From assembly GCA_030390025.1 (NCBI GenBank), contig CM059453.1, positions 6,262,001 to 6,326,000 of the forward strand: a stretch of 64,000 bases of DNA. Reading direction: 5' to 3'. The position numbers and the translations under genes were made by a program. The notes under the pieces were generated by a model. It saw only the letters and a program-made list of their open reading frames with translations. It had not been told where the DNA came from and did no database searches. Below are positions 1,004-64,000 of the stretch, piece after piece. The stretch comes from Squalus acanthias (taxonomy: Eukaryota). Position 1 is the stretch's first letter. Every line of letters starts with the position of its first letter.

Positions 1004-1764
1004 ATACTTTGAGTTCACTACAGTATCGTCCTGGGTGGACAGAATTCCAGATCCCCGAAATCCAACCTTCCCATGTATTACCTATACTAAAATCCCAAAC
1101 ATACATTCCCCTTGAAATGTGGTGTTTCAGGTACATACAGGTCAGAATCAATAATACATACACATCCAATCACAGAGGAGGTCCAACACCCCTACACCAC
1201 TTGGAAAACTATAATACATACATAGTAAAATAATACACGATCACAAACTGTATTTATTTTAATAAAAACAAATTAAGGTTTGCCCTAAACCTGGCCATAG
1301 GCTTTATTGGAATGCTGGTCCCATGCTTTCTCATGTCGGGACCGGAGCATTCTGCCCTTTGACTGCCGATTTCTTTGCAGTAGGGACACACAAAACTGAC
1401 AGCCATGTCCCGAGAAGGTTCTTTGGCTGGACAGGTGATCGATTCTCGAGAAACTTTCAAAATTACTCACTAAAATCCTTAATTCTTAAAAATTATAAAA
1501 CTACCAAACTGTAAAACACTAAAATACATTAAAACTCTGTACATTCGCCGCCCGTCTCCCAGCGGCCAGACTAAACCCTGTTCGGGGTCTGCCTTTTGCT
1601 GCTTCTGAGCAGCCGGTAAGGTAGCCTGTCCCGCAGGATCCTGAGAGTCCTTCTACTACAGCACACTGCCTCCTTTGGTGTGGCTTCTTCTGAGACCCTG
1701 TCCTGTCCTGCGGGTTCCTCGCAGCCTGAGACCGCAGGCTGGGGACCCTTCTTGTGTTCTTGGC

Positions 1765-4233: not shown

Positions 4234-4235
4234 TA

Positions 4236-5590
4236 TGTGGGGGGTGGTGTGGTAGTGGTCAGCCTCACCTCTGACTCAGTGAGCGGATCGAATCGCTCGC
4301 AGGCAGCTGGTTCTAGACCTTGGACTTATTTAGTGGTTGTGAACAAAGATGCAGTAGACAACAGGTTCTAAAGAAATAATTTTGACTTTATTAAAAGGAA
4401 AAGGTAACAAACTTAAAACACACTTAACACTTAAACACAGGTTGGGGAACACGCGATACAGGCGAGGGAAATAACATTAGAAGAATAATTAGCCCCTCCC
4501 AATCCCACTTCACTAGCGAGGTTGGCCTCTGGAGAACCAGGGATAATGCTCACCAAACGAATTCTTGACAGTTGAGAGTTAGGGTTTAGAGTCTTTTGAG
4601 TAAAACGTTTCGTAAGGCCCTTGTTGCCGCGAGGTGTCCAATGGTCACTGAGGCAATCGCTCTGGTTTCGTCTTGCGTTTCAGTCTGCTTGTGAAGTTGT
4701 TGGCCTTCTTTGTTGAAATTCTTGCTGTAACTCTGCCTCTGTTTAAACTGTCTTCTTCCGAGCTGTGGAACTGCCTTCTTGCAGAACTGTGCAAACTGCC
4801 TTCTGCCTGCTTGTCCTGAACTCTGTAACTCCAGCCCTGACTTCTTGCTGAAAACAGGCTTTTTGATTGAACTGCAGGACAGCCTTCTGTTGAACTTGAA
4901 CTGTAACTGTTTGATGGGCCTTCAATTATACTAAATTGAAGTGACCTTATTGTGTTTTTCGCGCCAAAACCGCTTTACTAAATCGGTTTCGTGTTGAAGT
5001 GATTTAGGTTTCAGTTGAGGCCTGTTCATTCTATTGTCTTAGGTTTTGGCCGGCTCGTTAAGTTTTATGATTTTAACTTGGTGTTAACTTGTCCTGATGG
5101 CTTCCTATTGTTTTCAGGTTTCTAGCATCCTGTTTGGGCCTGGTGATTTCAAAAGGGGTCTTTGATTATTCATTGTTGAATGTGATTGTGAGGTTTTGGT
5201 TGAGGCTCATCCTCCTTGGTTGGATTGCAGTGCAAACATCTTCCAGACAGCTTGATTGGGCCCCAATAACCAAAAGCTGTCACTGCCTCACCACCCCCTC
5301 CCCGCAGGCTTTATTGATTCTGTGACTGCAGGGTTTCATTCAAAGTCATTTTTCCTCAGGGCTTTTCTTCCCTGATCCTTAAAAAATGTCCAAAACTGAG
5401 GTTTTGACCACAAATTCCTTCACAGCCTTTTCTCTCTTTACAGGCCCAGACATGTTTTTAAAATGCCAAAACTTGGTTTTTGGTCTTCAATTAATTCTGT
5501 TAGGCCGACATGCATTTTTATCACTCTGGGGTTGGTCCAGAAGTCCTTTTTTTTCGATTTTGGGGATCTGCAAATTTTGGAAACCTTGCA
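4236..5590 (-). repeat. 5' LTR (1355 bp)
   Basis: TG...CA termini; AATAAA at 4392-4387 (minus); TATAA near 4930 (minus); matches 1-991. Confidence 0.9.
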
Positions 5591-26778: not shown

Positions 26779-27614
26779 TTTATATTCCTCTTTCAGTTGA
26801 CCGTACTTCAGGATGGACTGTGAGGGTGTCATGGATTGTGTCGGCAGTGAGCGGTTCATGCGCAGAGGTCCCGTGTACATTTGACCATCCCCTCAGTTGC
26901 AGTAATCCACGGTTTAAGTTCTTAAAGGGTGTTCTGATTCAGATACCCGAAGGGTCATGTTTTTCTGGAATTCCAGGGATGCAATTTGACTATAAAGGGC
27001 GAATTGAATTCACCGGCGCATTCACAAAGAAACAATGTTCCTTCCGGATAATGGACATCAGGTAGAGCGAAGAAGGTGACAATTGCATCACACTGACGAT
27101 CACCACCGCCACGAATCCTGCAGAAGAAGACTCGCCCATGTCTGAGGTCACTCTTTCGATTTCAAGTAAGTTTATTTTTAACGTGTTTATTTTGTAATTT
27201 ATATTCCATCTCCTCAGTGCCAATGAAACTTAAGATGCAAATATATCATTTTACACTTGACCTACTTCACAGGCTACAGGTTAGGGCTGGAGCATTGAAA
27301 AATTTCCAATTGTCTGTTATGTTTCGCCATGTACATATATATCGCGCTGGCAATTTTTGTAAGTAACAGAAGCTCCCTCCATTTTTCAGTTTGTAAGTGC
27401 AACTGTAGATGTTGTATTGAACCGTGCAGACCGGTGGGTCAAAATTCAATCCTTAATTGAAGTAGAAAAATCGGTTAAAGTCCGTACTTTTGAAGAGACG
27501 GTAGACGGACATGGTCTAAGCATTGGAAGGGTTTCTTGGGTGAAATCGCCCACAGGTCCCCATATCAGAACGAAAGAAAGAAAGAAAGATAGAAAGAAGG
27601 AAAGAAAGAAAGTA

Positions 27615-28770: not shown

Positions 28771-29747
28771 TTCCAAAGCTGAAAAATATTGTAAAGATAT
28801 CAGAGATTGGATGAAGATGATTATGCTGTTACAGAAAGTGCACTCCCAACCGGGCAGTAGCTCCATGTCTAACGCAATACATTTTGGTACAGAGCCGAGA
28901 CGAGTTTTAAGATATCGAATCATATGGGAAGGCTGTGACATGTCTGTAAGCTTTTCCTTAGACGCGATCATTCGGTTGGACACCCGGAGATGAAGCATCA
29001 GGAGCCCAGAGTGCACGGCGTGCCAATCCTTCCCATTCTCTCCTTCGCGTACGCTTCCACCTTAGGTGATAAATCAGCTTTAGGTTACACGGGGTGGTAG
29101 TGCTCTTCATTGCACTATCGCTCTCAGCTTCAAACAAATAAGTTAATCAACGAAGCTGAACAAAGTAATAGAGTCGGTCATTGATCAATCTTTGCCGAGG
29201 CAATCCAACTTGTCTCGGTTCGCCGGGTTAGGGAACGGAAAGACATCAATAGTTCCTATCCTTGTTCAGTGGCTCCTGCAAGTGTCCATTTGATCATCCA
29301 GAGAGGACAGGATCAGACTCGAGGCTAATTGGCCTTTCGCAAAATAGCAGATTGAGTGAGGGAGTGGAGGAACCTGACTCCAGTCAAGCGTTCAAGGTAG
29401 ACCAGGATAATATTGTGGCAAATTCTGCCAAGATGAGCTGCGAGCGTTTCCAATGATAGTAAAAACGCAGCTTTTTTCCTGGTTTTTTAAGATTTATTGC
29501 GTTTAGAACAAGAAACTGAAATTTTGGGATTCAGTAAATGCGACCTGTGCAAGTTCTGGTATTTTTCAGGTAAATTTCATATCTGCACATTCGCTCATTT
29601 CTTTGCAATGAACATATCAGTGCCCTTGAGAAAGAGTTGAAAAGTGCAGAGTGGCAGAATTAATGTCTTCGTTCTGCGTCGTCGAGTTGGATATCACTTC
29701 TCGAACGTCACTGTCGGGGTCATTCTCATAATGTTCCCTCTGCAACA

Positions 29748-30200
29748 GAAAAAACACGTGTTAAAGACACACAATTAACACGTGGTTCAGATACACAGAG
29801 AACACGTGGTACAGATACACAAAAATCACGTGGTACAGATACACAAAGAACACATAGTACAGATATAAAAAGAACACGTGGTACTAATGCACAAAGAACG
29901 CGTGGTACCGATACACAAAGAACACGTCGTACTGATACACAAAGAACACGTGACACTGATACAAAAATAACACGTGGTACTGATACACAAATAACACGTG
30001 GTACTGATACACAAAGAACACGTGGTACAGATACACACAGAATACGTGGTACTGATACACAAAGAACACGTGGTTCAGATACACACATAACACGTGGTGA
30101 ATGTACAAAAAGAACACGTGGTACAGATAAAAACAGAACATGAGGTACAGATACACAAAGAACACGTGTTCTAGATACACACAGAACAAGTGGTACAGCT
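29748..30200. repeat. 24-bp minisatellite (AACACGTGGTACAGATACACAAAG), ~19 copies
   Basis: Tandem units directly visible; they produce the 8-aa periodic ORFs in the ORF track. Confidence 0.95.
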
Positions 30201-30849: not shown

Positions 30850-32460
30850 GGGCACTTCGATTAGATTCCAGCCTGTGTCTGTCTCCCGGGCATCTGTTAC
30901 TCTATACATAAACAACCTGCATCTCTTGATTAGATTCCATCCTGTAACTCAGTCCCAGTTATCTGTTATTCTATATATAAACGCCCGAACACCTCGAAAT
31001 ACATTCCAACCTGTAACTCACACCCTGCTATCTGTTATTCTATATATAAACCCCCCGAACCCTTCGATTAGATTCCAGCCTGTGCCTCACTCCGGGGAGT
31101 CTGTTATTCTACATATAAAACCCGCGTAAACCCTCGATTAGATTCCAGCCTGTAACTCACTCCCGAGTATCTCTAATTCTATATATAAACCACCCTAACC
31201 CCTCGATTAGATTCCAGTCTGTAACCTACTCCTGGGTTTCTGTTATTCTATATATTTAACAACACGAACCCCTCAATTGGATTCCAGCCTGTAACTCACT
31301 CCCGGGTAACTGTTATTCCATAAAAAAACAACCCACCCACTCCCCGCGAACCGCTGGATTTGATTCCAGCTTGTAACTCACAACCGGGTATCTGTTATTC
31401 TATATATAAACCTCCGATCCCCTCGATTAAACTCCAGCCTGTAACTCAATCGCGGGTTTCCGTTCTTCTATATATTAACATCACGAAGCTCTCGATTAGA
31501 TTCCAGTCTGCAACTCACTCCGGGTATCTGGTAAGCTATATATAAACCCTCGAACCACTCGATTAGATTCCAGTCTGCAACTAACTCCCGGGTATCTGTA
31601 AAACTATATATAATCCCCCCGAACCACAAGATTAGATTCCAGCCTGTAATTCACTCCCAGTTATCTGTTATTCTATATATACTCACCCCGAACAACTCGA
31701 TTAGAATCGATTCTGCAACTCACTCCCGGATATCAGTTATTCTACATATAAACCCCACGAACTCCTCGATTAGACTCCAGCCTGTTACTCTCCCCCGGGT
31801 ATCTGTTATTCTATATGTAAACCAACCGAACCCCTCGATTAGACTCCAGCCTGTAACTCACTCCCAGGTATATTTTATTCTACATAAAACCCCCGAACCC
31901 CTCGATTAGAATCCAGCCTTTAATTCACTCCTGGGTATCTGTTAATCTATATATAAACCACCCGAACCCCTCAATTAGAGTCCAGCTGTAACTCACTCCC
32001 AGGTATCTTTTATTCTACATATAAACCCTCGAACCGTTCGATTAGATTCCAGCCTGTAATTCACTCCTGGGTACCTGTTATTCTATATATAAACCACCCC
32101 GAACCCCTCGATTAGATTCCAGCCTGTAACTCACTCCCGGGTATCTGTTATTCTATATATAAACCCCCTAACACCTCGATTCGATTCCAGCCTGTGACTC
32201 ATTATCGGGTATCTGTTATTCTATATATAAGCCCCCGAACACCTCGATTCGATTCCAGCCTGTAACTTATTCTCGGGTATCTGTTATTCTAAATATAAAC
32301 CCCGAAACCCTCGATTAGATTCCAGCCTGTAACTCACTTCCGGGTATCCGTGATTCTACATAAAAATCACCCAAAACAATAGATCAGAATCCAATCGCGA
32401 AGTCATTGTTGGGTATCTGTTAATTTAGACATGAGACATTCGAACCTCTTCGTTATATTT
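30850..32460. repeat. ~68-bp tandem satellite, ~23 copies
   Basis: Unit CCCCTCGATTAGATTCCAGCCTGTAACTCACTCCCGGGTATCTGTTATTCTATATATAAACCACCCGAA; degenerate at both ends. Confidence 0.95.
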
Positions 32461-33504: not shown

Positions 33505-36500
33505 CTTTGCATATGGTACATAGGCACCAACGATATAGGTAAAAAAGGGGATGAGGTCCTAAAAGCAGAATATAGGGAGTTAGGAGGTAAATTAAAAAAT
33601 AGGACCTCAAAGGTAGAAATCTCAGGATTGCTACCAGTGCCACGTGCTAGTCAGAGTAGAAATAGGAGGATATTTCAAATGAATACGTGGCTAGAGGAAA
33701 GGTGCAAGGGGGAGGGATTCAATTTCCTGGGACATTGGAACCGGTTCTGGCGGAGGTGGGACCAGTACAAACCGGACGGTCTGCACCTGGGCAGGGCCGG
33801 GACCGCTGTCCTAGGGGGAGTGTTTGCTTGCGCTGTTGGGGAGGATTTAAACTAATGTGGCAGGGGTTTGGGAACCTGAGCAGGGAGACAGAGGAAAGCA
33901 TGTCAGGAAGGGACAGAAGGTATGGAGTAAAAGGTAAAGTGTTAAATAAGGAAAAAGCAGGAAGTAAGTGTCGCAAAACACATTTGAAAGTTCTTTATCT
34001 GAATGCACGTAGCATTCGTAACAAAATTGATGAGTTAACGGCACAAATAACTATATATGGGTATGATCTTGTGGCCATTACAGAAACATGGCTGCAGGGT
34101 AACAACGTCTGGGAATTAAATATGCCAAGGTATTTAACAATCAGGAAGTACAGGCAGGAAGGAAGGGGAGGGGGGGGGGTGGCTATGTTATTAAAGGAAG
34201 GAATCACTGTAATACAGAGAAATGATATTGGGTCAAAAGATCAGGATAATGCAACAGTTTGGGTAGAGATTAGGAATAATAAGGGGAAAAAAACACTGGT
34301 GGGCGTAGTATATAGGCCTCCTAATAGTTGCAACTCTGTTGGAAGAAGTATTAATCAGGAAATAGTTGGGGGATGTAATAAGGGAACAGCTATAATTATG
34401 GGGGATTTTAACTATCATATTAACTGGACAAATCAAATTGGGCAGGGCAGCCTTGAGGAAGAGTTTATTGAGTGTCTTAGGGATGGATTTCTTGAGCAGT
34501 ATGTAACTGATCCTACAAGGGGGCAAGCAACCTTGTAACTGGTACTGTGTAATGAGTCTGGATTAATTAATAATGTCCTAGTTAAGAATCCCCTTGGAAT
34601 GAGTTAACATAACATGGTTGAATTCCATATCCAATTAGAGGGTAAGAAGGTTGGTTCTCAAACAAGCATACTGAGCTTGAATAAAGGAGACTATGATGGT
34701 ATGAGAGCAGAATTGATTAAAGTGGACAGGAAAAAATAGATTAAAGGGTAAGACGGTACAGGAGCAGTGGTGTTCATTCAAGGAGTTATTTTACAACCTT
34801 CAAAATAAATATATTCCACTGAGGATAAAAGGGTGTAAAAGAAATGAAAGCCATCCATGGCTAAGTAAAGAAATTAAAGAAAATATCCAACTAAAAACAA
34901 GGACATATAAGGTAGCCAAAGTTAGTGGGAGGATAGAAGATTGGGAAGTCTTCAAATGACAACAAAAAGTAACTAAAGGATTGATTAAGAAAGGGAAAAT
35001 AGACTATGAAAATAAATTAGCAAAAAATATAAAAACAGATAGCAAGAGTTTCTATATTTATATAAAAAGAAAAAGGGTGGTTAAGGCAAACGTAGGTCCC
35101 TTAGAGGATGAGACCGGGAAATTAATGGTGGGAAACATGGAGATGGCAAAAATGCTGAACAAATATTTTGTTTCAGTCTTTATGGTAGAGGACACTAAGA
35201 ATATCCCAACACTGGACAAACAGGGGGCTCTAGTGGGGGAGGAGCTAAATGCGATTAAAATTACTAAGGAATTGATACTCAGTAAAATAATGGGACTCAA
35301 GGCGGATAAATCCCCTGGACCTGATGGCTTGCATCCTCGGGTCTTGAGGGAAGTGGCAGTAGCAATTGTGGATGCTTTGGTAATAATTTTCCAAAACTCC
35401 CTGAACTCAGCAAAGGTCCCGGCAGATTGGTTAACTGCTAATGTAACACCCTTATTTAAAAAGAGTTGTAGGCAGAAGGCTGGAAATTATAGACCAGTTA
35501 GCCTAACATCTGCGGTGGAAAATTTTTTGGAGTCTATTATTAAGGAGATAGTAACGGAACATTTAGATAAACATAATTTAATAGGACAAAGTCAGCATGG
35601 CTTTATGAAGGGGAAGTCATGTCTGACAAATTTGCTCGAGTTCTTTGAGGACATAACGTACAGGGTTGATAAAGGGGAAACAGTGGATGTAGTGTATTTA
35701 GACTTCAAGAAGGCATTCGACAAGGTGCCACATAAAAGATTATAACTCTAGATAAAAAATCACTGGATTGGGGGTAATATTCTGGCATGGGTGGAGGATT
35801 GGTTATCTAAGAGGAAGCAGAGAGTTGGGATAAATGGTTCATTCTCGGAAGGGCAACAGTAGCCAGTTGTGTTCCGCAGGGGTCGGTGCTGGGTCCCCAA
35901 CTCTTTACAATCTATATTAACGATTTGGAGGAGGGGACCGAGTGTAACATATCAAAGTTTGCAGAGGATACAAAGATGGGAGGGAAAGTAGAGAGTGAGG
36001 AGGACATAAAAAACCTACAAGGGGATATAGACAGGCTGGGTGAGTGGGCAGAGATTTGGCAGATGCAATACAATATTGGAAAATGTGAGGTTATGCACTT
36101 TGGTAGGAAAAATCAGAGAGCAAGTTATTATCTTAATGTCGAGAAACTGGAAAGTACTGCAGTACAAAGGGATCAGGGGGTCTCTGTGCAAGAAAATCAA
36201 AAAGTTAGTATGCAGGTGCAGCACGAGATCAAGAAAGCCAATGGAATGTTGGCTTTTATTGCTAGGGGGATAGAATATAAAAACAGGGAGGAATTGCGGC
36301 AGTTGTATAGGGTATTGGTGAGACCGCACCTGGAGTACTTCATACAGTTTTGGTGTCCATACTTAAGAAAAGACATACTTTCTCTCGAGGCAGTACAAAG
36401 AAGGTTCACTCGATTAATTCCGGGGATGAGGGGGTGGACATACGAGGAGAGGTTGAGTAGATTGGGACTCTACTCATTGGAGTTCAGAAGAATGAGAGGC

Positions 36501-36995
36501 GATCTTATTGAAACATATAAGATTGTGAAGGGGCTTGATCGGGTGGACGCGGTGAGGATGTTCCCAATGATGGGTGAAACTAGAACTAGGGGACATAATC
36601 TTAGAATAAGGGGCTCCTCTTTCAAAACTGAGATGAGGAGAAACTTTTTCACTCAGAGGCAAGTGGGTCCGTGGAATTTGCTACCCCAGGCAGCTGTGGA
36701 AGCTACTTCATTAAATAAATTTAAAACAGAAATAGACCGTTTCCTAGAAGTAAAGGGAATCAGGTGTTAAGGGGAGCGGGCTGGAAATTGGACATGAGTT
36801 TGAGTTCGGATCTGTCAAGGCCCTGTGGGTGGCGGAGCGGGCCCAGGAGCCGAGTGGCCTGGTCCTGCTCCTGCTTCTTGTGTTCTTTAGAGTTGAGGTT
36901 GGATCAGATCAGCCATGATCTCATTGAATGGCGGAGCAGGCTCGAGGGGCCGATTGGTCTGCTCCTGCTCCTATTTCTTACGTTCTTATGTACTT
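33505..36995 (+). mobile_element. Near full-length CR1 (HER1-like) LINE: ORF1 SGNH-esterase portion plus ORF2 endonuclease/RT, inactivated
   Basis: IGTNDIG...DGLHL (esterase); LNARSI, ITETWL, YRPP, GDFN (endonuclease); QHGF, YLDFKKAFDKVPH, FAEDTK (RT); several stops and frameshifts; ttcttatg tail. Confidence 0.95.
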
Positions 36996-38354: not shown

Positions 38355-38920
38355 ACTGGAGTACTGCGTACAGTTTTGGTCTCCTTATTTCAGGAGGGAT
38401 ATACTTGCATTGGAGGCAGTTCAGAGATGATTCACTAGGTTGATTCCTGGGATGAAGGGGTTGTCTTATGAGGAAAGGTTGAGCAGGTTGGACCTATACT
38501 CATTGGAGTTTAGAAGAATGAGAGGTGATCTTATTGAAACATATCAGATTCTGAGGGGGCTTGACAGTGTAGATGCATAGTTGATGTTTCCACTCGGCGG
38601 GGAATCTAGAACTAGGGGGCATAGTTTCAGAATAAGGGCTCGCCCGTTTAAAACGGAAATGAGGAGGAATTACTTCTCTCAGAGAGCCATGAATCTTTGA
38701 ATTCTCTACCCCAGAGAGCTGTGGAGGCGGAGTCATTGAATATATTCAAGGAGGAGATAGACAGATATTTGAGCTACAGGGGAGTGAAAGGTTATGGGGA
38801 GAGAGCGGGAAAGTGCAGTTGAGGCCAAGATCAGATCAGCCATGATCTTATTGAATGGCGGAGCAGGCTCCAGGGACCGAATGGCCTTCTCCTGCTCCTA
38901 TTTCTTCTGTTCTTATGTTT
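38355..38920 (+). mobile_element. CR1 LINE 3' fragment inserted at the ancestral stop codon of gene A
   Basis: ctggagtactgcgtacagttttggtctcc...ttcttatgtt tail; antisense to gene A. Confidence 0.9.
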
Positions 38921-39011
38921 AATTGGAGCATAATCGCTGTTCTTCTCATTTGGGCTATATGGTTCATTATTGCGGATGTGTGAGACATTGACAGTCACGT
39001 ACACAATCTCT

Positions 39012-39059
39012 TCATTCTGAGCAGTTTGCATCATTTGCGGGGCTCACGTGATCGTCCCT
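39012..39059 (-). CDS. Gene A last coding exon as spliced (RDDHVSPANDANCSE*); ITIM/ITSM-like motifs lie out of frame downstream
   Basis: Acceptor ttacag|; phase 0 from the previous exon gives TGA at 39014-39012. IVYVTV (39007-38990) and SDYAPI (38938-38921) are in another frame. Confidence 0.7.
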   Translation of the reverse strand, partial: RDDHVSPANDANCSE

Positions 39060-39349: not shown

Positions 39350-39428
39350 CTCTCCGTTTAGAACCTCAGTGTACACCATCGCACCACTATCGGTTTTCGG
39401 CACACATGCAGTCTCACTGCTCTTCTTC
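39350..39428 (-). CDS. Gene A cytoplasmic exon 1 (RKKSSETACVPKTDSGAMVYTEVLNGE)
   Basis: ttttttag| and |gtaagt; phase 2 to 0, consistent with the TM exon. Confidence 0.8.
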
Positions 39429-41699: not shown

Positions 41700-41793
41700 C
41701 TTTGTATCTTCAGCAGGAGCACGACTGCAATTAGTAACACAATCCCAGTGGCTCCTCCTCTTATGATGAGAAGAATTGTCCTGGAGAATATTC
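41700..41793 (-). CDS. Gene A transmembrane exon (GIFSRTILLIIRGGATGIVLLIAVVLLLKIQ)
   Basis: ttttttag| and |gtagga; hydrophobic run followed by basic residues; phase 1 to 2. Confidence 0.85.
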
Positions 41794-42596: not shown

Positions 42597-42884
42597 CCTT
42601 AGCGTGGAGCTGGTATTTACTGACAGAATCACCGTGCTCGTTTGCTGCAACACAAGAGATCAGGTTTCCGGTTCCGGTTGGGTGAGTCAATCTCAGGGAG
42701 CTCTCCATGAGGTGACTATTCACCGCCCAGGAGATGATTTCCACATCTGACCTGTCCCCAGTGTGGATTCTCCCATTGAGGCCCCACGTGATGTTTCCCG
42801 GGGGATTGGCTCTGATCCGGCAGCTACAATTCGTCCAATTCGCAGAGCTGGTGCATGTCGGGCCTGATAAAATTGTCGGTTTAT
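42597..42884 (-). CDS. Gene A membrane-proximal Ig domain exon
   Basis: DKPTILSGPTC...NCSCRIRANPPGNITW...ISCVAANEHG; 288 nt, phase 1-1. Confidence 0.88.
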
Positions 42885-43808
42885 CTAAAAAAAAAGGAAA
42901 CTTCAATAGGAAATGATCATGTAAACAGCTGTAGTTTCGAAATACAATTAAGTAATGAGTTGAACTAACCATCATAGTTCTGGTTGTTATATTTTAAGAT
43001 GAATCAGTCTATGTTGCACTAGTTCATGGCATATTATATCTTCACTTATAACATGTGAGCTCGTTAGGAAGACTTCCATATTAAATCCAATGAGTGTTCG
43101 TTCCATCAATACCTCTCCTGACAGATGTCGCGAGGGACCCTCAGACGGAGCTAGCTCAGAGATTTGATTATGTATAATATACCCACAAACGTGTCTCACA
43201 CGTCACTGTTTTAAAAGGTCAATTCATGTCAATGTTTTCACTAGGTGTACTGTGTTCAAGATCTTTATTTGTGGTGGAATGACGTGATTCTTCAATAAAC
43301 GTACGGCTAGCAAGGCAACACTTCAAAGAACCAAGTCTCGGAATATTACACTAATAACTCAAAATTAATACAAGGAACAGGAGTTGGCTTAACACAATTT
43401 ATCACACTTTTTTAGAGAGAATTTGTGCTCATCACATTGCTACAAGTCAGATCTAAGGATTGGAAAATTGTCTATTTCAGACGACAAGTATAATTTATGA
43501 ACAATTAGTTGTAGAGTAAAGGTCCCAGTAAATGTGCTTGTGTCGCAACCTCATAAATGTAAGACCTGCTGCATTTATGAGACATTGTGCCATATTCCAC
43601 TACTGTCATATTGAGCGAGAGGCCAGGTTAGTTTCCATTATTGGAGCCACCGAAGTAGTTTGCCGCTATTTTCGCGGAAGGGGTGAAACTATCCCAAAAG
43701 CATGCACATGGGCGCCTTCCCGCAAGCAGGCAAGAGAAAACTGTAATTTAATCCAGAGTTCGTGAAATGAAAGGCTACTATCTAATTGATAAATTAATAC
43801 ATACTTAC

Positions 43809-44066
43809 ATTGTACTGAAATCTGTGTGGAGCGATTTGTGGTGCCCAGGGCATTTTCAGCTATGCACCAATATTCACCGTCGTCCTCAGAACGAATGTTG
43901 CGGAATATCTGCTTTAGTTCACCAATGGATGATCTGCTGGTATCTTCACCATTTTTCACCCATCTTAAGCTGACCAGGGGTTTCCCATCGGCCGTGCAGT
44001 ATAATAATAACGAACTTCCTTCCACAGCTACTATAGAGGAGTTGACGGTTGGGATGTTCGGTCCAT
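43809..44066 (-). CDS. Gene A C2-set exon 2
   Basis: EGSSLLLYCTADGKP...W...EDDGEYWCIAENALG; 258 nt, phase 1-1. Confidence 0.92.
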
Positions 44067-44651
44067 CTGAAACAGGCGTTAATGCAAAACGTGATTGTCG
44101 AGTAAGCATTATTGAGCTCCTAATTAATTCATTATATTGGGTATGGGGATCGGGCGGGAAATTGAAGTTGAGTTCCATGATCAGCCATGATTGCCGGAGT
44201 GGCAGAGCAGGCTCGAAGGGCCGTATGGCCTACTCCTGTTCCTAATTCTTAAATTCTTATTAAGCCCAAACAGAGCTGAGATCTGATGTCATAATAACAG
44301 ATCCTAACTCGGCATGGCCTTTGTTGCTTCCATTTATGACTGACTAAACTCATAACCTGACTGGAAATTCACAGAATAAAGATTAACAATCACTTAAAAA
44401 AATATGTTGGAGGCACCATCATTGATACATGGATATGAATGATTCTAATGTAATATCACTGGTGAGAATTAGATGAGAGCCATTGCGAACCGTTGATTAT
44501 CGAAATGAGCTCTCCTGGTAAAGAGGCTGCGCTTTTCATGATGCATCCGTTGATGCAGTTCTAATCCCGAATAAATTACTTGTGTAAAAGTGCAAATTTT
44601 GAGCCCGTTGGCCGACAGGATAAGTCTGTTTACTTTAGACCGGACACTTAC

Positions 44652-44963
44652 ATTTAATCTCCAAAATAAGATTTTGTGCTGAAGGAGAAGGAATTCCATT
44701 AATTAGAATTGTGCATCCCAGAATGTTCCCGTCATGAGCAGATGATGGAGTGAAGGTCAGCACGGATGAAACTTTCCGAGATTCTGAATGTTCTTTGATC
44801 ATTCCTTCTCCTTCTTGTGTATCCCACGGAAGAGGAAGGGACACATTGTACTTAATCCACCTCAGTTGCAGGGTGCCATTCCAGCAGTTGTGTGTGATGG
44901 AACAGGTGAATCGTGCAGTTTTTCCAGCGATCAGTTCGCCATAGCTTGAAATACGTGGCGTTT
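44652..44963 (-). CDS. Gene A C2-set exon 1
   Basis: FTCSITHNC...W...SSVLTFTPSSAHDGNILGC (Siglec domain-2 signature with extra Cys); 312 nt. Confidence 0.92.
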
Positions 44964-47138
44964 CTATTAAAACGGGAGAAAACCAGCGTGTTAGGTACAT
45001 TTCAACGTTAGAACGGGCGAGTGTTGGCTTCCAGCTAAATGTGAGAAGGACGTGAAATGAAAATTACATTTAGTTCCTTTTTGTCTGCTGCGTGTTGCAA
45101 GTGTGTTCAGCACTCTGAATTACTCCTCGCAGTTGTAATGTAGTTTTATGCCTCATCGGGTAACATATGTTCCGACTTTATGTTAAACTTTAGTCGTTTT
45201 TTCTCCTAACTTATCTATATCATGGATATGATAGCTGTAGACCAGTGAACCAACGTTAACTCCTCAAATGTCACGAATATTTCATCCTCTCGTATACCTC
45301 GTTCTGCACCGGCAATTGACTATGTGATGGTGATTAATGCAGACCCAGAGAGATCTCGATTCTGTTTTCAAGAAACGTCAATATAGAACGACAATGCTCA
45401 AGACATGGAGAGACCAGACAAAGGATTGATAACACCACCGCGTGTGGGAGAAGCAGAGCAGGTTCCTCGGGTGGAAATCTGCAGAAGGCTTCTGCAGAAA
45501 TAGTATTTGTAGCCGTGGGATTTGAATGAACAAATAAATTATAACTTGAACTGATTTTCACGTTACTCAAATTTCTAATTTTTAATTAAGATCTAATTAA
45601 AAGCGGGGTAAATGAGCGCTGGATAGGGAAAGGCACGAACAAAGACTGAATTAATTCACCGCTTTTTAAGTACTCGCGACGTCAAAAGACGCTTCACCAA
45701 AAAGTTACTTGAAATATAATCAGGCAGACATTGCCGACGGTAAAACAGGAGATTATTGGAAAAGTTATTAAGATGTTTGGAATTAAGGATAAGGTAGAAA
45801 TTGTAATACAAACTGTTTAGAAGGGACGAAGCAGCGAGTCGCTGTTAAGCGCAGTTGCTCAGAATAGTTGGATCCCAGTACGGTGTCCCACAGGGCTGTC
45901 CTGTGGTTTTGCTTCTACTCACTGTGTGCATCAATAATTTGGAGAAAGGGCTAAAGAGAATGATGTCAAAATTTCCCGCAGGAATTAATTGGATTCCATC
46001 AAAATGAAAATTGGGCGGGTTGTACAATGAGAGGCGCATCCAATATCGCCAGTTTTACACCCATGCCAACCTTGCAAGTGCAACTCCCAGGAGATAACTA
46101 GAGAATTAAGCGAGTTACAAACGGATACTGGAGATATAGTAGAATGGGGATATTAGAGGCAGATATAATTTAAGGTCAGAAAATATGTGGTGGTAGATGT
46201 TAATTTGAACCGTAGACAGCTGGGAGATGTGGAAGAGCAGAGGCATTTGGAGTCAGCTTCATAAGACAGTAAAAGTAGCACCTCCAGTGGGAAAGTGTAG
46301 GAAGATGTTTCTGGAGCTCGCGGTTTAACGGCAAGAGATCAATAATATAAATTCGAGAATAGTGGAGATTCTAACGAGAACAGTAGTTAGTTCACAGTTG
46401 GAGTAAGAATGCGGGTTTTGGGCTCCAGACTACAGGAAGAATTTACTGCGGATTCGCGTAGTTTCTGGCTGGTATGATGATGTATGAATACCAAGCAAGT
46501 ATTTAATAATTGGGGCAGATCTTATTGGGCTAAAACAGACTTTGGGATGATTTGACAGAAGTTCTTAAACTTATTAAGCAACAGGACAGAGGAGATAGAG
46601 CAGACTGAAGTAGAATTTGAAATGGCCGCCCTGGTCAACACTCTCATTCCAGATAAGTCACTCATTCTAGCAACCGCCCAATTTCATTACCATTCATTTC
46701 ATTGGAAATAATAAGCTGCTGGTTTATGTGTTGTAAGTACGACCAACAACGTCAGTTTTAGGTTCAGTCAACACGTATTAATCTATCCTCATGTGGACAT
46801 TTTCAGAATCGGCTCGACAGGTGTTTGAAGGGAATTGCAATAAAGCGATATGGGAACTGAGCAGGCACATGCGATTCGGAGTGTTGCTCATGTGAAGGAC
46901 AAACAGCAACACGGACTGGCTGGGCGGAAGGGCCTGTTTTACTTTTGTAATTTCTATATACTTCTGTGTTTAGGATATCAGACATCTGCGTACCTCATCA
47001 GTATCCCTGCACCCTTTGTTTCAACTGCCCTTTGAGATCGGTCAGGGATATTATAATATTTTCCCACTTTGCACATAGGTTGATTCATACTGAAGCACTG
47101 GAGTGAAAATGTACAAAAGGAACAAAGGGAAAACTCAC

Positions 47139-47512
47139 CTAATACAGAAAGAAATGTGTGAGCACGCAGAGTGCGAAGTCCCTTAATATGCCTGGACGAA
47201 GCGTTCGCGATGAAGAGTTGGTATATACCCTCATCACTCTTCCTGATATCCTTTAGTAGGAGGTAACATTGTTTCTTTAAACACTTGAACTCAGCTCTTC
47301 CAAGATAGTTATAATGCTGCCTGAATGGTAGTTTAGAATCAAAGATAATGGGGAAACCTAGTTTACCAGGAACATGTCCCTCTTTAACCACGTCACATCA
47401 CCGATTCTCTGATAGACTGGATAATTAAACGTACACCGGATCTTTGCACATGAACCGGCCACCGCCGTCACAACTTTTGGTATCATCACAGAGAATTCAG
47501 CACTAAAAACAA
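47139..47512 (-). CDS. Gene A V-set exon (1-bp deletion at 47378-47380)
   Basis: GSCAKIRCTFNYP...TWLKR/GHVPG...GRAEF...QCYLLLKDIRKSDEGIY; aligns with 60151-60531. Confidence 0.88.
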
Positions 47513-48139
47513 CTGAGAAGAATAAATTAGACACCCTTTAATTAGCCATTCAAAATGCATTTCAGCATCTTTATCATCCATTAAAGTATTTGTTAATTGA
47601 CAAATAATCGCCATTCACAATAGCAATTAAAATATCAGTGAAGGTCTTTTCAAAATCAAGAAAAAATACGAAACAAAATCCAATCACAACACCTATTGAA
47701 ATGATCATAGGAATAACTATTTAATGGGAGATTTATGAACCGATAATATACATATTTAATACTCATCTAAAAACCGAATACATATCAACTAACATGTAAG
47801 GGAATGCCCATTAAAAATTCTCATTAAATATAGCTTAAAATATTGATCAAAATAAATATTAAACATCTATTGAATCTCCTTTGAATTACTCAATCAATAT
47901 GAAGTAAATGTTATTAAATGTGCATTACAATAAAATAATTTGAAAATCCATGTATTTAAACATTATTTGAATAGGCTGTATCCGCTATAATACAACAACA
48001 ACGCACGCGTTAAACAATCATGAAATTCCTATTTCACAAGTTCTGAAATCAATAACAAAAAAATCATTCATATTCGTTATTTTGCTGTTCCTTTTCCACA
48101 ATCACTTGCAGAAATTGTAAAAAAGCATCACAAATGTAC

Positions 48140-48182
48140 CTTCTGTCAACATTATGAGAGGCAGCAGCACGCAACTCCTCAT
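48140..48182 (-). CDS. Gene A leader exon (MRSCVLLPLIMLTE)
   Basis: gccATG, 43 nt, |gtacat donor; near-identical to 59470-59512. Confidence 0.88.
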
Positions 48183-48858
48183 GGCTCTAAACTGCTGCCG
48201 ATTTCACTCGCTAAATGAAGACCCCAATTCACAATTTACACCATTCAGATTTCAGCTTTCTTCTTTCCAGTCACTTCTTGGATTTCTTTGCTAATCAGCA
48301 TCAGACTATCGGGGAAGTTTGATTCGGTTGCTGCCAATGTGTAGGAACAGTGCTCACTCAATCAGCTCCGTTGGTGAGGTAGGCAGCTAGCACATCTTGT
48401 ACATGGGCTGCGTGTGACCGCCTGTTAAAAATATGATGTTATGGTATTTTTAACCGTTTCAAAAAATACTTAATTTCGAAACAACATCTCTCTCTCTCTC
48501 GAACAAACTCACACAAACACCAAATGTACTGTTATTTATGATATTGATATATTGGCGTCTGTGTCAGATTGGCACCGCCCACGCTTGCAGACGCCTCTGA
48601 CACACATTTCACACATATTTCGCTTTCTGGCAGCTAATACGAGATGAATGTTGGAGAGTGGTTAACTACAGTCAGTTAGGTTGCTGCAGTCTGTGAACGT
48701 GTGGTTTCGTCACCTTCTTTAAGGAGCGCTGCAATATGCATCTGTGACGTTTTAGATAGGAGCTGTTTGACAGTAAACCGTTTGACGCTGTGGTAAACAG
48801 CCTTTCTTCTAAATATTTAACTCTTTGCATTCACACTCAAGCTCAGTAATTTTGCAGA

Positions 48859-50442: not shown

Positions 50443-50606
50443 CTATTCTGCAACACACTCATGGATATTATGCAGTGTACCAGCCCTGCCGCTGTAGCCT
50501 GTGACTTGGGCCGAGAGTAACATGAAATCTTTACATTTTATGCTCAAGTTAATTGGCACTGAGGAGATGGAAGATAATCTATAAAGGAACAATTCAAAAA
50601 ACTTAC

Positions 50607-51397
50607 ATAAAATAGGAAGTGTGACCTTAGACCCGGAAGAAAATCCTTCTGTTGTATTCTGGGCGGTGATGATCTTCAATATGAAATAACAGTCACCTTG
50701 ATCGCACTTGCTGATGTCCTTCAACCGTAAGGAACATTGTTTCTTTACAAATTCGGCGGTGAACTGAGCTCGCCCTCCATATTTCAAGGGCACGTTATCT
50801 GAATCCCGGGAATCATAGATAATCGAGACCCCTGAGGTTCCAGGTCAGGAACCTCCTTTAACCACATACCCTGTGGACTAAGGCCAGAGGCGGGATAATC
50901 AAATGTACACGGGATCTCTGCACATGACCCGTTCACCGCCGGCACCTTCACAGACCATCGGGAACTATGGACAACTGGTGAAAAAACAGAAATTAAACAC
51001 CCATTAAACACCCATTGAAATTCGCAATATTATAGCAATTTAAACATACCCTGACCGTCAAGTTAAATACTATTAATTTAACCTTTAAACACCCACTAAC
51101 ATATTCATTAGTACATCTAATGAAATTCGTGCAATTTTCTCCAAAACTCTTTAAATTCTATTAAATATTCCATTTCAAACTAATAAATCATAGCGTAATT
51201 ATCAAATCAATCCTATATAATACATAATAAAGTTCCAAATAAAACATACATTAAATACGAACTGTGTGAATGCACAAATGATTGACTAACCGTATGTTTT
51301 GTCTAAAATATTATTATTTTGTCTGAGAAAAATTATTAAAAATGAATATTTTACCTTCGCTAAATATCCGAATGGAAATACATCTAATAATCTTCAT
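50607..51397 (-). pseudogene. Siglec-like pseudogene C (leader 51397-51355; frameshifted V-set exon 50974-50607)
   Basis: Leader MKIIRCISIRIFSE, 43 nt, with GT donor. V exon GSCAEIPCTFDYP...W / GRAQF...KKQCSLRLKDISKCDQGDCYF is 368 nt (out of frame). No C2 exons before the gene A upstream region. Confidence 0.85.
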
Positions 51398-58620: not shown

Positions 58621-59469
58621 GACCACACTGATCTGTTTGTGCGGAGCTATTGCTTCAATCAATTTTATCTGTGTCTGTTACAGCAATATTTGTATTTACG
58701 ACAGGAACCTTCAGTCCATTTCACACGTCCCAGACCTCATAACTAAATTTCAATGAAAGCACTGCAACAAAGAGGGTGGCATTTTTGTTAAGTTCTGTCA
58801 AATTACGGAGCTTGAGTGTGAATGTACAGAGTTAAATTATTAGAAGAAAGGCTGCTTACCACAGCGTCAAACGGTTTACTGTCAAACAGCCCTATCTAAG
58901 ACGTCACAGATGCATATTGGAGTGCTCATTAACGAAGGGGACGAAACCACACGTCTGCAGACTGCAGCAAGCTAACTAACTGCAGTGACACCTCTCCAAC
59001 ATTCAGCTCGTATTAGCTGCCAGGAGGCGGAATATGTGTGAAATGTGATTCAGAGGCGTCTGCAAGCGTGGGCGGTGCCATTCTGACACAGACGCCAATA
59101 TATCAATATCATAAATAACAGTACATTTGGTGTTTGTGTGAGTTTGTTCGAGAGAGAGAGAGATGTTGTTTCTGTATTAAGTATTCTTTTGCAACGGTTA
59201 AAAATACCATAACATCATATTGTGTAACAGGCGGTCACACGCAGCTCATGTACAAGATGTGTTAGCTGCCTACCTCATCAACGGAGCTGATTGAGTGAGC
59301 ACTGTTCCTGCAGATAGGTAGGAACCGAATCGGACTTCCCCGATAGTCTGATCCTGATTAGCAAAGAAATCCAAGATGTGACTGGAAAGAAGAATGCTGA
59401 AATCTGAATGGTGTTTATTGTGAACTGGGTTCTTCATTTTGCGAGTGAAATCGGCAGCAGTTTCCAGCC

Positions 59470-59512
59470 ATGAGGAGTTCCGTGCTGCTGCCTCTCATAA
59501 TGTTGACAGAAG
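59470..59512 (+). CDS. Siglec-like gene B leader exon (MRSSVLLPLIMLTE)
   Basis: gccATG, 43 nt, |gtacat donor. Confidence 0.9.
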
Positions 59513-60150
59513 GTACATTTCTGCTTTTTTTTTTACAATTTCAGCAAGTGATTTCTATCTTGTGGGAAAGGAACAGGAAAATAACGATTATGAATGATTT
59601 TTTTGTTATTGATTTCAGAACTTGTGAAATAGGAATTTCATGATTGTTTAACTTGTGCGTTATTGTTGTTTTATAGCGTTTGTAGCCTACTCAAATAATA
59701 TTTAAATACTGTGATTTTCAAGTTATTTTTATTATAATGCACATTTAATATCATTTACTTCATATTGATTGAGTGATTCCAAGGAGATTCAATAGATGTT
59801 TAATATTTATTTCGATCAATATTTTAATGTATATTTGATGATAATTTTTATTGGGCGTTCGCTTACTTGTTAGTGGATATGTATTCGTTTTTTAGATGAG
59901 TATTAAATATGTATATTACCGATTCATAAATCTCCTATCAAATAGGTATTCCTATGGCCATTTCAATAGGTGTTGTGATTGGAAATTTTTCAGTATTTTT
60001 TTCTTGATTTTGAAAAGACCTTCACTGATATTTTAATTGCTATTGTGATGGGCGATAATTTGTCAATTAGCAAATACTTTAATGGATGATAAAGATGCTG
60101 AAATGCATTTTGAATGGCTAATTAAAAAGTGTCTAATTTATTTTTCTCAG

Positions 60151-60531
60151 TTGTTTTTAGTGCTGAATTCGCTCTGCTGATGCCAAAAGTTGTGTCGGCG
60201 GTGGCCGGTACATGTGCAGAGATCCGGTGTACGTTTGATTGTCCAGACTTTCGGGGAATCGCGGGTGTGACGTGGTCAAAGAGGGGACCTGGTTCTGGTA
60301 ACCCCGGCTTCTCCATTATCTATGATTCTAAATATCCATACGGGCAGCATTATAACTATAGTGGAAGAGCTGAGTTCACGGGCAAAATTGCAAAGAAACA
60401 ATGTTCCCTCCTGCTAAAGGATATCAGGAAGAGTGATGAGGGTACATACCAACTCAGCATCGAGATCGCTTCGGACAGGTCTACTAATAGACGTCGCACT
60501 CTGCGTACTGACGTATTTCTTTCTGTTTTAG
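60151..60531 (+). CDS. Gene B V-set exon (intact)
   Basis: 381 nt, phase 1-1; GTCAEIRCTF...W...GRAEFTG...QCSLLLKDIRKSDEGTY Siglec V-set cysteine pattern. Confidence 0.93.
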
Positions 60532-62722
60532 GTGAGTTTTCCATTTGTTCCTTTTGTACATTTTCACTCCAGTGCTTCAGTATGATTCAACCTATGTGCA
60601 AAGTGGCAAGTATTAAAATGTCCCTGACCGATCTCAAAGGGTAGTTGAAACATAGGGTGCAGGGATACTGATAAGGGACGCAGATGTCTGATATCCTAAA
60701 CACAGAAGTATATTGAAATTACAAGAGTAAAACAGGCCCTTCGGCCAGCCAGTCCGTGTTGCTGTTTGTCCTTCACATGTGCAACACTCCGAATCGCATG
60801 TGAATGCTCAGTTCCCATATCCCTTTATTGCAATTCCCTTCAAACACCTGTCGAGCCTATTCTGAAAACGTCCAAATGAGGATAGATTAGTACTTGTTGA
60901 CTGAACCTAAAACTGACGTTGTAGGTCGTACTTACAATACATAAACCAGCAGCTCATTATTTCCAATGAAATGAAAGGTAATTAAACTAGGGCGGTTGCT
61001 AGAATGGGTGATCTATCTGGAGTGAGAGATTTGACCAGGGCGGCCAGTTCATATTCTACTTAAGTCTGCTTCTATCTCCTCTGTCCCGTTGCTTAATAAG
61101 TTTAAGCACTTCTGTTCAATCATCACAAAATCAGTTTTAAACTAATTAGATCTGCCCCAATTTTTATATATTTTCTTGTCATTTAAACTTCCTCATACCA
61201 GCCAGAAACTACGCGAATCCGCCCTAAATCCTTTCTATAAACTGGAGCCCAATACCCGCACTCTTACTCCAACTGTGAGCTAACTACTGCTCTCGTTCGA
61301 ATCTCCACTATTCTCGAATTTATATTATTGATCTCTTGCCATTAAACCCAGAGCTCCAGAAACATCATCCTACGCTTTCCCACATGAGCTGCTGCTTTTA
61401 CTGTCTCATGAACCTGACCCCAAATTCCTCTGCACTTCCACATCTCCCAGCTTCCTACGGTTCAAATGTAAATCTATTGCCTCATATTTTCTGACCTTCA
61501 ATTATATCTGCCTCTTATCTCCCCATTCTACTATTTCTCCAGTATCCGTTTGTAACTCGCTTTAGTTCTCTAGTTCTCTAGCCTGGGAGTTGTACTTGCA
61601 AGGTTGGCATGGGTGTCAAACTGGCGATATTGGACGCGCCTCTCATTATACACCTCGCCCATTTTTCATTTTGTTGGAATCCAATTAATTCCTGCCGGGA
61701 AATTTTTACATAATTCTCTTTAGCGCATAATCCAAATTATTGATGCACCCAGTGAATAGAAGCAATCCCACAGGACAACACTGTGGGACACCGTACTGGG
61801 ATCCAACTATTCTTAGCAACTGCGGTGAACAGCGATTCGCTGCATCGTCACTTCTAAGCAGTTTATATTGCAATTTCTACCTAATCCTTAATTCCAAAAC
61901 TCTTAATATCTTCTCCAATAATCTGCTGTATTTACCGTCGGCAATGGCTGCTTGATTACATTTCAAGTTACTTTTTGGTGAAGCGTCTTTTGACGTCGCG
62001 AGTACTTAAAAAGCGTTGAATTAATGCAGTCTTTGTTCGTGCCTTTCCCTATCCAGCGCTCATTTACCCGCTTTTAATTAGATCTTAATTAAAAATTAGA
62101 TATTTCAATAACGTGAAAATCAGTTCAAGTTATGATTTCTTTGATCATTCCAATCCCACGGCTACAAATGCTATTTCTGCTGAAGCCTTCTTCAGATTGA
62201 CACTTGAGGAACCTGCTCTGCTTCTCCCACAGAAGGTGGTTTTAACCGTCCTTTCTCTGGTCTGTCCATGTCTTGAGCATTGTCGTTCGATATTGACGTT
62301 TCTTGACAACAGAATCGAGATCTCTCTGGTTCTGCATTAATCTCCATCACATAGGCAATTGCTGGTGCCGAACGAGGTATACGAGAGGATGAAATACTCG
62401 TGACATTTGAGGAGTTAACGTTAATTCTAAGTCCAGCGTGCAAAATTTGTTCACTGGACAATATCCATGATACAAATCATTTGGAGATATAACGACTAAT
62501 GTTTAAATAAGTGTTGCCATATTTTACCCGATGAGGCATAAAACTGCATTACAACTGCGAGGAGTAATTCAGAATGGTGACACACTTGCAACACGTGGCA
62601 GAGAAAAATTAACAAAATTTGATTTTCTTGTTATTTCTTTCACAGATTTAATTGTAAGCCATCGATCACCCGTTTTAACCCTGAAATGTACCTAACAAGC
62701 TGGTTTTCTCCCGTTTTTATAG

Positions 62723-63034
62723 AAAAGCCAGAGATTTCAGGTTCTGGGGAATTGATCGCTGGACAAACTGCACGATTGACCTGTTCCGTCACGCACAACT
62801 GCCCGGATGGCAACCTGAAACTGAAGTGGATTAATTACAATGTGTCCCTTCCTCCCCCAATGGATACTCAAAATGGAGCAGAAATTAAAAATGAAAGTTC
62901 AGGTTCTCGGAAAGTTTCATCCGTCATCATCTTCACACCATCATCTGCTCATGACGGGAAAATTCTGGGATGCTCAATTCTAATTGATGGTATCCCAACT
63001 CCTTCAGCACAAAATCTTACCTTGGAGATTGAAG
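62723..63034 (+). CDS. Gene B C2-set exon 1
   Basis: 312 nt; LTCSVTHNCP...SSVIIFTPSSAHDGKILGC. Confidence 0.93.
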
Positions 63035-63621
63035 GTAAGTGTCCTGTCTAAAGTAAACAGATTTATCCTATCGGACAACCGGCTCCAAATTTTCACTTTT
63101 ACCACAAGTAATTTATCAGGGGTTAGAACTGCATCAACGGATGCATCATGAAAAGCTCAGCCTCTGTACCAGGAGAGCTCACTTCGATAATCAATGGTTC
63201 GGAATGGCTCTCATCTAATTCTCATCAGTCAGATTACATTAGAAACATTCATATCCATGAATCAATGATGCTGCCTCCAACAGATATTTTAATGTGATTG
63301 TTAATCTTTATTCTATGAACTTCCAGTCAGGTTCTGAGTTTAGTCAGTCATAAATGGAAGAAACAAAGGCCATGCCGAGTTACGATCTGAAGCTCGGACA
63401 CCAGATCTCAGCTCTGGTTGGGCTTAATAAAAACTTAAGATTTAGGAAAATGACTTCGCCATACGGCCCATTCGAGCCTGCACCGCCACTCCGGCAAACT
63501 TGTCTGATCATCGAACTCAACACCAATTTCCCGTCCGATCCCCATACCCAATACAATGAATTAATGAAGAACTCAATTATGCTTATTCGACAATCACGTT
63601 TTGCATTAACGCCTGTTTCAG

Positions 63622-63879
63622 ATGGACTGGAAATCCCAACCGTCAACTCCTCTATAGTAGCTGTGGAAGGAAGTTCATTATTATTATACTGCACGGCCTG
63701 TGGGAAACCCCTGGTCAGTTTAAGATTTGTGAAAAATGGTGAAGAGATGAGCAAATCATCCACCGGTGAACTAAAGCAGTTATTCCCCAGCATTCGTTCT
63801 GAAGACGACGGTGAATATTGGTGCATAGCTGAAAATGCTGTGGGCACCAAAAACCGCTCCACACAGATTTCTGTACAAT
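63622..63879 (+). CDS. Gene B C2-set exon 2 (gene continues beyond the window)
   Basis: 258 nt; EGSSLLLYC...EDDGEYWCIAENAVG; |gtaagt donor. Confidence 0.93.
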
Positions 63880-64000
63880 GTAAGTATGCATGAATCTTCA
63901 ATTAGATAGTAGCCTTTCATTTCAAGAATTCTGCATTAAATTCCAATTTTCTCTTGCCTGCTTGCTGGAAGGCCCCCGTGTGCATGAGTTCTGGATAGTT

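Follow-up and report, generated by a model that had tools for sequence, protein, structure and literature searches.

Facing Siglec-like receptor genes in Squalus acanthias: probable diversification of the V domain within a mosaic family with two kinds of tail

A 64,000-nucleotide stretch of Squalus acanthias DNA (assembly GCA_030390025.1, contig CM059453.1, forward-strand positions 6,262,001 to 6,326,000; hereafter the window) contains two Siglec-like receptor genes that face each other: gene A, on the minus strand and wholly inside the window, and gene B, on the plus strand and running past the window end. Our preferred reading, which we regard as fairly likely, is that A and B, which face each other, belong to a large and mosaic family of Siglec-like receptors, in which the outer V domain would diversify under selection for changing binding partners and gene conversion would shuffle exon blocks among copies and between two signalling tails. 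That the diversifying selection on V is real is held with somewhat more confidence, and we consider it distinctly probable. An earlier note on the exons of B between 60151 and 63879 had taken A and B as the products of one duplication, both functional afterwards, with diversifying selection graded from the membrane-distal tip.

Selection on the V domain

The family sample consists of 40 copies, namely A, B and 38 loci chosen as best V matches, and excludes the stop-bearing locus L029 and more distant V matches. Across the 28 close copies with an intact V exon, the ratio of replacement to silent diversity (piN/piS) is 1.65 in V (bootstrap 1.20-2.31), 0.98 in the first C2-set exon (C2-1), 0.62 in C2-2 and 0.60 in C2-3; 12 intron windows read as codons, two of which overlap, served as the neutral control and gave 0.85-1.24. 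Diversity in V is higher at 0-fold than at 4-fold sites (0.129 vs 0.076, P 0.013), and the V exons of the arginine-type copies described below show the same excess (0.120 vs 0.071). The ratio is 1.59 in 18 pruned copies and 1.45 in 11 mostly intact ones. None of 400 neutral simulations on V composition reached 1.65; with mosaic trees, rate variation and doublets included (27 copies), 3 of 1500 reached the observed ratio. Counting of this kind is robust to mosaicism, because one tract carries silent and replacement sites together. The V exons read contain no in-frame stop, compared with 17.5 expected if neutral, in copies that had been picked by V match.

When the sites were mapped on the predicted structure of V, piN peaked in the BC, CC' and FG loops, the three patches that the earlier note had quoted. 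Together these loops, which were picked after inspection of the data and lie on the surface with which Siglecs bind their ligands, have a piN of 0.241, about twice that of the introns; only 1 of 20000 random intron triplets is as variable. In B they lie as follows:

60240..60257, plus strand: BC loop, residues 30-35; family piN 0.22
60285..60308, plus strand: CC' loop, residues 45-52; family piN 0.23
60468..60494, plus strand: FG loop, residues 106-114; family piN 0.27, the highest of all elements

Between A and B, the proposed clustering of changes in loops holds for these three (17 of 23 positions vs 30 of 103 outside them, gaps counted, p 1e-4). It does not extend to loops in general: the idea that loops vary more than strands was rejected, since 25 of 64 non-strand and 22 of 62 strand positions differ (p 0.72). 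The quoted patches exist, but in A a 1-nt deletion that had been overlooked leaves two of them, HVPGKL and SRHIKGL, out of frame.

A codon alignment of the pair bore out the earlier amino-acid counts: 43 of 122 aligned codons differ in V (64.8% identity, four indel codons set aside), 31 of 103 in C2-1 (69.9%) and 13 of 85 in C2-2 (84.7%). The assertion that exons are more diverged than introns had set protein identity against intron DNA identity, and neutral drift at 10% DNA divergence alone would be expected to produce about 21% amino-acid difference. At the DNA level, 357 of 3500 sites differ in four intron stretches (10.2%; 89.8% alike). V (57 of 374, 15.2%; 84.8% alike; Fisher p 0.005) and C2-1 (54 of 312, 17.3%; 82.7% alike; p 0.0003) exceed this level, but C2-2 does not (24 of 258, 9.3%; 90.7% alike; p 0.75). 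The membrane-distal gradient is likewise absent from A/B DNA, where C2-1 exceeds V and V exceeds C2-2, but appears in the family piN/piS values given above.

Pairwise replacement (dN) and silent (dS) divergence, estimated by the Nei-Gojobori method with a transition/transversion parameter (kappa) of 1 to 2, separates the exons. In V, 50.2 replacement and 5.8 silent differences give a dN of 0.21 and a dS of 0.065, a ratio of 3.1-3.6 (Fisher p 0.002-0.007). In C2-1, dN is 0.19 and dS 0.20-0.23 (ratio 0.82-0.95), with dS twice the intron level (p 0.01-0.045); in C2-2 they are 0.09 and 0.13. Raised silent divergence, which would point to conversion from a more distant paralogue, is therefore a property of C2-1 and not of V, and the earlier proposal of diversifying selection stands for V only. 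The A/B pair overstates the family signal, since its V ratio of about 3 falls in the top 8% of 414 family pairs (median 1.68).

Transition bias is close to nil in these genes: the transition/transversion ratio is 0.42-0.78 in eight family intron pairs, the commonest changes being A-T. Such a near-absence is unusual for a vertebrate. That it is special to this family was rejected, an unrelated repeat pair (window 1-991 vs 4599-5590) giving 0.40.

Gene layout and the mosaic family

Comparison of the window with itself yields a single long inverted match, 43687-48858 vs 58794-64000 (88.4% identical). Each arm contains the signal-peptide, V-set and C2-set exons of one gene, bordered by AG and GT throughout the arms. 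The start codons of the two head-to-head genes are 11.3 kb apart, and the exon chain runs signal peptide, V, three C2, transmembrane, tail. An N-terminal V-set domain followed by C2-set domains in a type I membrane layout is that of the Siglec family. The exons and neighbouring elements are:

59470..59512, plus strand: B signal-peptide exon (coding part), with ATG start and GT donor; kept in 40/40 copies
60151..60531, plus strand: B V-set exon, intact; Ser at the essential-Arg position of Siglecs; likely under diversifying selection
60532..62722, plus strand: B intron 2, 89.6% identical to A; its final ~200-350 nt lie within the divergent C2-1 block
62723..63034, plus strand: B C2-1 exon, common lineage; silent and replacement sites both differ from A
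63622..63879, plus strand: B C2-2 exon; likeness to A at the intron level
L031:6153-6440, outside the window: B C2-3 exon
L031:7252-7345, outside the window: B membrane exon
L032:1618-1705 and 3450-3617, outside the window: B tail exons
48140..48182, minus strand: A signal-peptide exon
47139..47512, minus strand: A V-set exon, 374 nt, lacking one base near 47376 (frameshift) and six, in frame, near 47280
44652..44963, minus strand: A C2-1 exon, belonging to the second lineage; far closer to L041 than to B
43809..44066, minus strand: A C2-2 exon, intact
42597..42884, minus strand: A C2-3 exon, intact
41700..41793, minus strand: A transmembrane exon; Arg near the outer end (IIRGGATG)
39350..39428, minus strand: A first cytoplasmic exon; single Tyr, MVYTEV
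38905..39059, minus strand: A last exon; a net 17-nt deletion shifts the frame of both distal Tyr motifs, and a repeat has inserted at the former stop
50600..50975, minus strand: relic V exon between the facing genes, frameshifted, of an older Siglec-like type

A second lone broken V exon of the older Siglec-like type lies at window 26780-27190 on the plus strand. The C2-3 acceptor of B (L031:6151-6152) is CG, the sole case in 32 copies, with in-frame AGs 18 and 21 nt downstream; B is otherwise intact.

The V exon of B matches the Pfam families V-set (1e-13) and, at the cut-off, Ig_CD22. By sequence, its best matches among solved structures include sialoadhesin and MAG, and both lead the fold search (the V structure model has a predicted local distance difference test score of 80.9; the other four models, 30-60). 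Siglec-type V domains have cysteines on strands B and E, an extra N-terminal cysteine and none on strand F. In 21 sequences C21, C26 and C84 are invariant, and the model places C26 on strand B and C84 on strand E, in agreement with the Siglec pattern. Six long homologues were obtained, each an annotated shark protein. With 150 of 242 candidates scored, the V exon of B has at least 127 genomic matches, at least 95 of them on the same contig, mostly within a 2-Mb stretch.

The copies are mosaics. Trees of 35 copies disagree among regions, and a sister relationship of A and B is rejected in V (approximately unbiased test, p-AU 0.002), C2-1 (2e-14) and also intron 5. On these trees A and B are two members of a mosaic family and not sister copies, which disposes of the earlier derivation of the two from one duplication. 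The C2-1 exon of A is 3.2% from that of L041, 6.4% from L042 and 17.3% from B, and introns 1-3 of A are mostly 6-14% from close copies. Starting ~200-210 nt before C2-1 and throughout the exon, A is about 19% from B while its distance to L041 and L042 is 3-8%. This pattern is likely a block such as conversion would leave. The C2-1 excess of the pair is thus attributed not to selection but, as likely, to conversion that brought in an older version, because dS is raised too and the block is common to L041 and L042; C2-1 exists in old lineages, exchanged between copies as blocks. Compared with neutral expectation, distinct stops are few in C2-1 (1 vs 10.6) and C2-3 (1 vs 7.6). The pairs L051/L053, L049/L052 and L058/L059 are 0.9-1.3% apart at offsets of ~780-810 kb, and represent either recent segmental duplication or an uncollapsed haplotype.

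Elsewhere in the window, a direct repeat of ~1 kb (93%) at 1-5590, with degenerate minus-strand open reading frames (ORFs) between its copies, is likely a retroelement relic. Tandem arrays occupy 29745-30198 (24 nt, 19 copies) and 30857-32372 (69 nt, 22 copies). Long ORF pieces at 33666-36770 (plus strand) presumably derive from a LINE-type endonuclease/reverse transcriptase. Outside the window, L109 and L110 (G000:C3542) have CD22-like V matches in open frames that run to 1558 and 1083 codons and greatly exceed one immunoglobulin (Ig) exon; they are possibly intron-less multi-Ig genes.

Two tails, the ligand face and the stalk

Tails could be read in 38 copies, 27 of the B type and 11 of a second, arginine (Arg) type that includes A. 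The B-type tail follows a mostly uncharged membrane helix and carries a proximal tyrosine motif, an immunoreceptor tyrosine-based inhibitory motif (ITIM; IAYATV) and a distal ITIM-like motif; some are shortened or broken. In B itself the motifs are IAYATV and TCEYAAI, the combination found in CD33-related Siglecs, and B would be an inhibitory receptor. The membrane helix bears an arginine close to its outer end in 11/11 Arg-type vs 3/27 B-type copies, although related copies are not independent. In the last exon of 10 of the 11 Arg-type copies a common net 17-nt deletion puts the two motifs out of frame; the 11th has a larger loss. The Arg type combines a charged membrane residue with an ITIM-less tail, as do the activating forms of paired receptors, and the tail arrangement, as read from the DNA, is that of a paired-receptor system. 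Putative coupling of the Arg type to an FcR-gamma-like chain is suggested by its membrane arginine and short tail, as in the receptors described in PMC2413239. The genome also contains membrane exons of two adaptor kinds. We take one to be FcR-gamma-like and the other zeta-like.

The ITIM-less tail has a single origin. Intron 5 is the sole region in which the Arg-type copies group together as a clade (9/9 in the tree, support 100); such a clade is rejected in V and C2-1, where they are interspersed among ITIM-type copies. L052 (Arg type) and L049 (ITIM type) are 0.5% apart in V with opposite tails, one of several cases of near-identical ectodomains on opposite tails, compared with 15% between the V exons of A and B. 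Five head-to-head cassettes consist of an Arg-type gene, a relic V exon and an ITIM-type gene: that of the window and four at G000:C30 187041/197293, 6847201/6862044, 7303133/7315777 and 7659253/7674087. Facing partners in these cassettes are not homogenised, being 10-15% apart in V. The membrane exon of L049 and L057, which have an ITIM-type tail, is 6 nt shorter and gives the helix both Glu and Arg; a membrane Arg is likewise combined with an ITIM-type tail in L033, L050 and L068, L033 also having an early stop. These five charged-helix copies are possibly dual-signal forms.

The V surface under selection probably acts without the usual mode of sialic-acid binding. The F-strand arginine of sialoadhesin, which we take to be the essential sialic-acid residue, aligns with Ser in B and Phe in A, and is missing in 37/40 copies and in the five homologues read from other sharks; the ligand is therefore probably not sialic acid bound in the usual way. 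It may be a microbial or polymorphic host molecule, the selection pattern being the ground on which a pathogen or other ligand is suggested as the driver. The three copies with the arginine (L056, L058 and L059, V codon 102) are sister Arg-tail copies with a 2-residue insertion in the BC loop. A single substitution separates their Arg codon from the Ser codon usual at this position, and they likely regained the residue from Ser.

The C2-2 exon is broken in 16 of the 38 tailed copies, by stops, frameshift, splice-site changes or insertion, compared with 1 for C2-1 and 3 for C2-3, and it is absent from L065. It contains 6 distinct stops vs ~12 expected if neutral; full neutrality was rejected on its piN/piS of 0.62, although stops are tolerated. 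As a symmetrical exon it can be skipped in frame, and it is missing from the annotation of three of five shark homologues read (P0002, P0003, P0006; gene predictions). A stalk-length switch via C2-2 skipping is possible. None of the 15 splice joints listed, of 40, skips C2-2, which carries no weight either way.

A would be a recently broken activating-type copy that would signal via an FcR-gamma-like chain. As assembled, its 1-nt V deletion leads to a stop after ...TWLKRDMFLVN. Its private V changes, 19.5 replacement vs 1.5 silent (binomial p 0.02-0.07), are unlike long neutral decay, suggesting that A diverged while functional. The deletion removes one base of an AA pair; the unrelated copy L068 lacks this base too. 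In run X11 (RNA by guess, with another organism label, depth ~2), one contig covers 47191-47413 with 9 differences and one gap; deduced from depth columns, it shares the 6-nt deletion of A and carries an extra base that keeps the frame. This contig hints weakly at a recent or allele-specific break of A, or at an assembly error. DNA contigs of runs X1-X4 do not bridge the frameshift in the pieces listed and neither confirm nor deny it. Joints matching three introns were seen in runs X10 and X11, so kin of these genes apparently undergo splicing there; the joints are not assignable to A.

Competing explanations and known receptor systems

The results that weigh against our reading concern V and the Arg-type copies, and all come from the single genome sampled. 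For V, they would fit relaxed constraint without positive selection, with framework silent sites held low by homogenisation or splicing and short tracts from distant paralogues raising loop diversity. The piS of V (0.078) is below that of introns (0.10-0.11). Outside the three loops piN is at the intron level (0.105) and piS is 0.064; inside them piS rises to 0.136. The V ratio may therefore partly reflect a homogenised framework with imported loop tracts. Adding six older-clade V copies (34 intact copies) lowers piN/piS to 1.07, the older clade alone giving 0.80: the signal is that of the young radiation. The site models M1a and M2a, run with our own code and fixed relative branch lengths, gave a likelihood-ratio statistic of 22.5 for V and no signal in C2-1 or C2-3, but 6 of 12 intron controls were significant too, three of them more strongly. 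We set the models aside as evidence for this reason. The one-ratio omega of V (M0, 1.23) is also within the control range (0.62-1.27). Relaxed constraint on converted exons is described in primate SIGLEC11/16 (PMC5701461). However, tracts carry both kinds of site, mosaic simulations seldom reach the observed ratio, the other exons lack the low piS (0.10-0.14), loop piN is about twice that of introns, and stops are lacking from V, with the caveat on sampling given above; relaxed constraint without positive selection is on balance unlikely. The account of one duplication with selection on both V and C2-1, graded from the tip, is very improbable. It draws on pair dN exceeding intron divergence in V and C2-1 and on graded family ratios, and a C2-1 ratio near 1 with almost no stops could mask a mixture of purifying and positive selection. 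It is contradicted by the rejected sisterhood of A and B, by C2-1 dS raised along with the adjoining intron, by the lack of a C2-1 site signal and by the frameshift in A.

The Arg-type copies, A included, could instead not be activating receptors but form a lineage in decay or one of decoys: their tail would have been destroyed in a single event, and they would now be a reservoir of donor sequence for V and C2. This is a doubtful but not negligible prospect. Only L062 among the 11 has all four Ig exons intact, C2-2 is broken in 8/11 Arg-type vs 8/27 ITIM-type copies (p 0.03), and in five the tail exons, too, show early stops, frameshifts or loss of a donor. A single substitution separates the Arg codon from Gly, and three ITIM-type copies also have it. 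PMC2413239 gives NxxR at the start of the membrane helix for FcR-gamma partners; in the Arg-type helix the Arg is present but position -3 is Leu and the Asn is absent. On the other side, all 11 have an intact membrane exon that encodes the Arg (0-fold diversity 0.022), the V exons show the family excess, C2-2 can be skipped in frame and is unannotated in some shark homologues, and humans commonly carry null alleles of activating Siglecs (PMC6288428). Assembly artefacts, with the frameshift of A a read error and some near-identical copies a second haplotype placed in tandem, appear quite unlikely to explain the data. The AA pair, L068 and the frame-keeping X11 contig point that way, as do four pairs with ~0.9% intron divergence, two sharing a ~780-kb offset. 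However, other frameshifts are common to sister copies (L056/58/59; L064/65), as expected of real mutations; noise is at most 0.9%, compared with 10-15% divergence; and random errors drive piN/piS to 1, but pruning close copies leaves 1.59.

The preferred reading, a mosaic family with a diversifying V domain, has parallels in known systems. The CD33-related Siglec cluster of primates (PMC6288428) similarly has clustered V and C2 receptors with ITIM and ITIM-like tails, and evolution is faster in its first Ig domain than in the second, for which microbes have been proposed as the driving force; its activating members use DAP12. The present family differs in its at least 40 close copies, the common loss of the essential arginine, and sialoadhesin and MAG as best solved matches; the likeness is one of layout and motifs. 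SIGLEC11 and SIGLEC16 (PMC5701461) lie ~9 kb apart head to head, one inhibitory and one activating, with gene conversion and a null activating allele that has a small exon 2 deletion, which resembles the facing arrangement here and the 1-nt V deletion of an activating-type copy. Unlike that pair, facing partners here are not homogenised and their close matches are other copies of the cluster, and that article reports relaxed constraint, not dN above dS. The outer-end arginine, short tail, ITIM-bearing kin and expanded family recall LILRA, PIR-A, GPVI, OSCAR, NKp46 and Xenopus XFL (the last with NxxR), which couple to FcR-gamma (PMC2413239), but the ectodomain here is a Siglec-like V-set, the Asn is lacking and adaptor coupling is putative.

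Annotated Siglec-like proteins of other sharks (Heterodontus, Pristiophorus, Heptranchias, Scyliorhinus; P0002-P0007) share the layout of V, C2, membrane and tail, P0002 being 50% identical to the V domain of B. Unlike A and B, P0002, P0003 and P0006 lack C2-2 and P0007 lacks C2-1; their names come from databases only. A literature search of titles and abstract starts, with few subscription journals and no supplements, found no study of a shark Siglec cluster or of selection on one; PMC13358205 gave no passage on sharks for the terms tried, and PMC8455134 mentions Siglecs once.

For work on such clusters, standard site tests give false positives here, on introns as well, and intron controls are therefore needed. 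A wider proposal, tentative and as a whole doubtful, is that in sharks a Siglec-like lineage without the arginine became a recognition system in the style of KIR/LILR, comprising 40 to 100 genes, in which antibody-like V loops would be selected for non-sialic, probably microbial or polymorphic-self ligands, conversion would re-pair tips with ITIM or single-origin FcR-gamma-type tails, C2-2 loss would switch the stalk, and one activating branch would have regained the sialic-acid arginine. Fast V domains, conversion, on/off pairs and broken activating copies are known in primate Siglecs and, if our reading is true, occur in cartilaginous fish also. The arms race would then run on receptors without the sialic-acid residue, and so be separated from sialic-acid mimicry, and the three loops together with the intact activating copy L062 would be targets for a ligand hunt.

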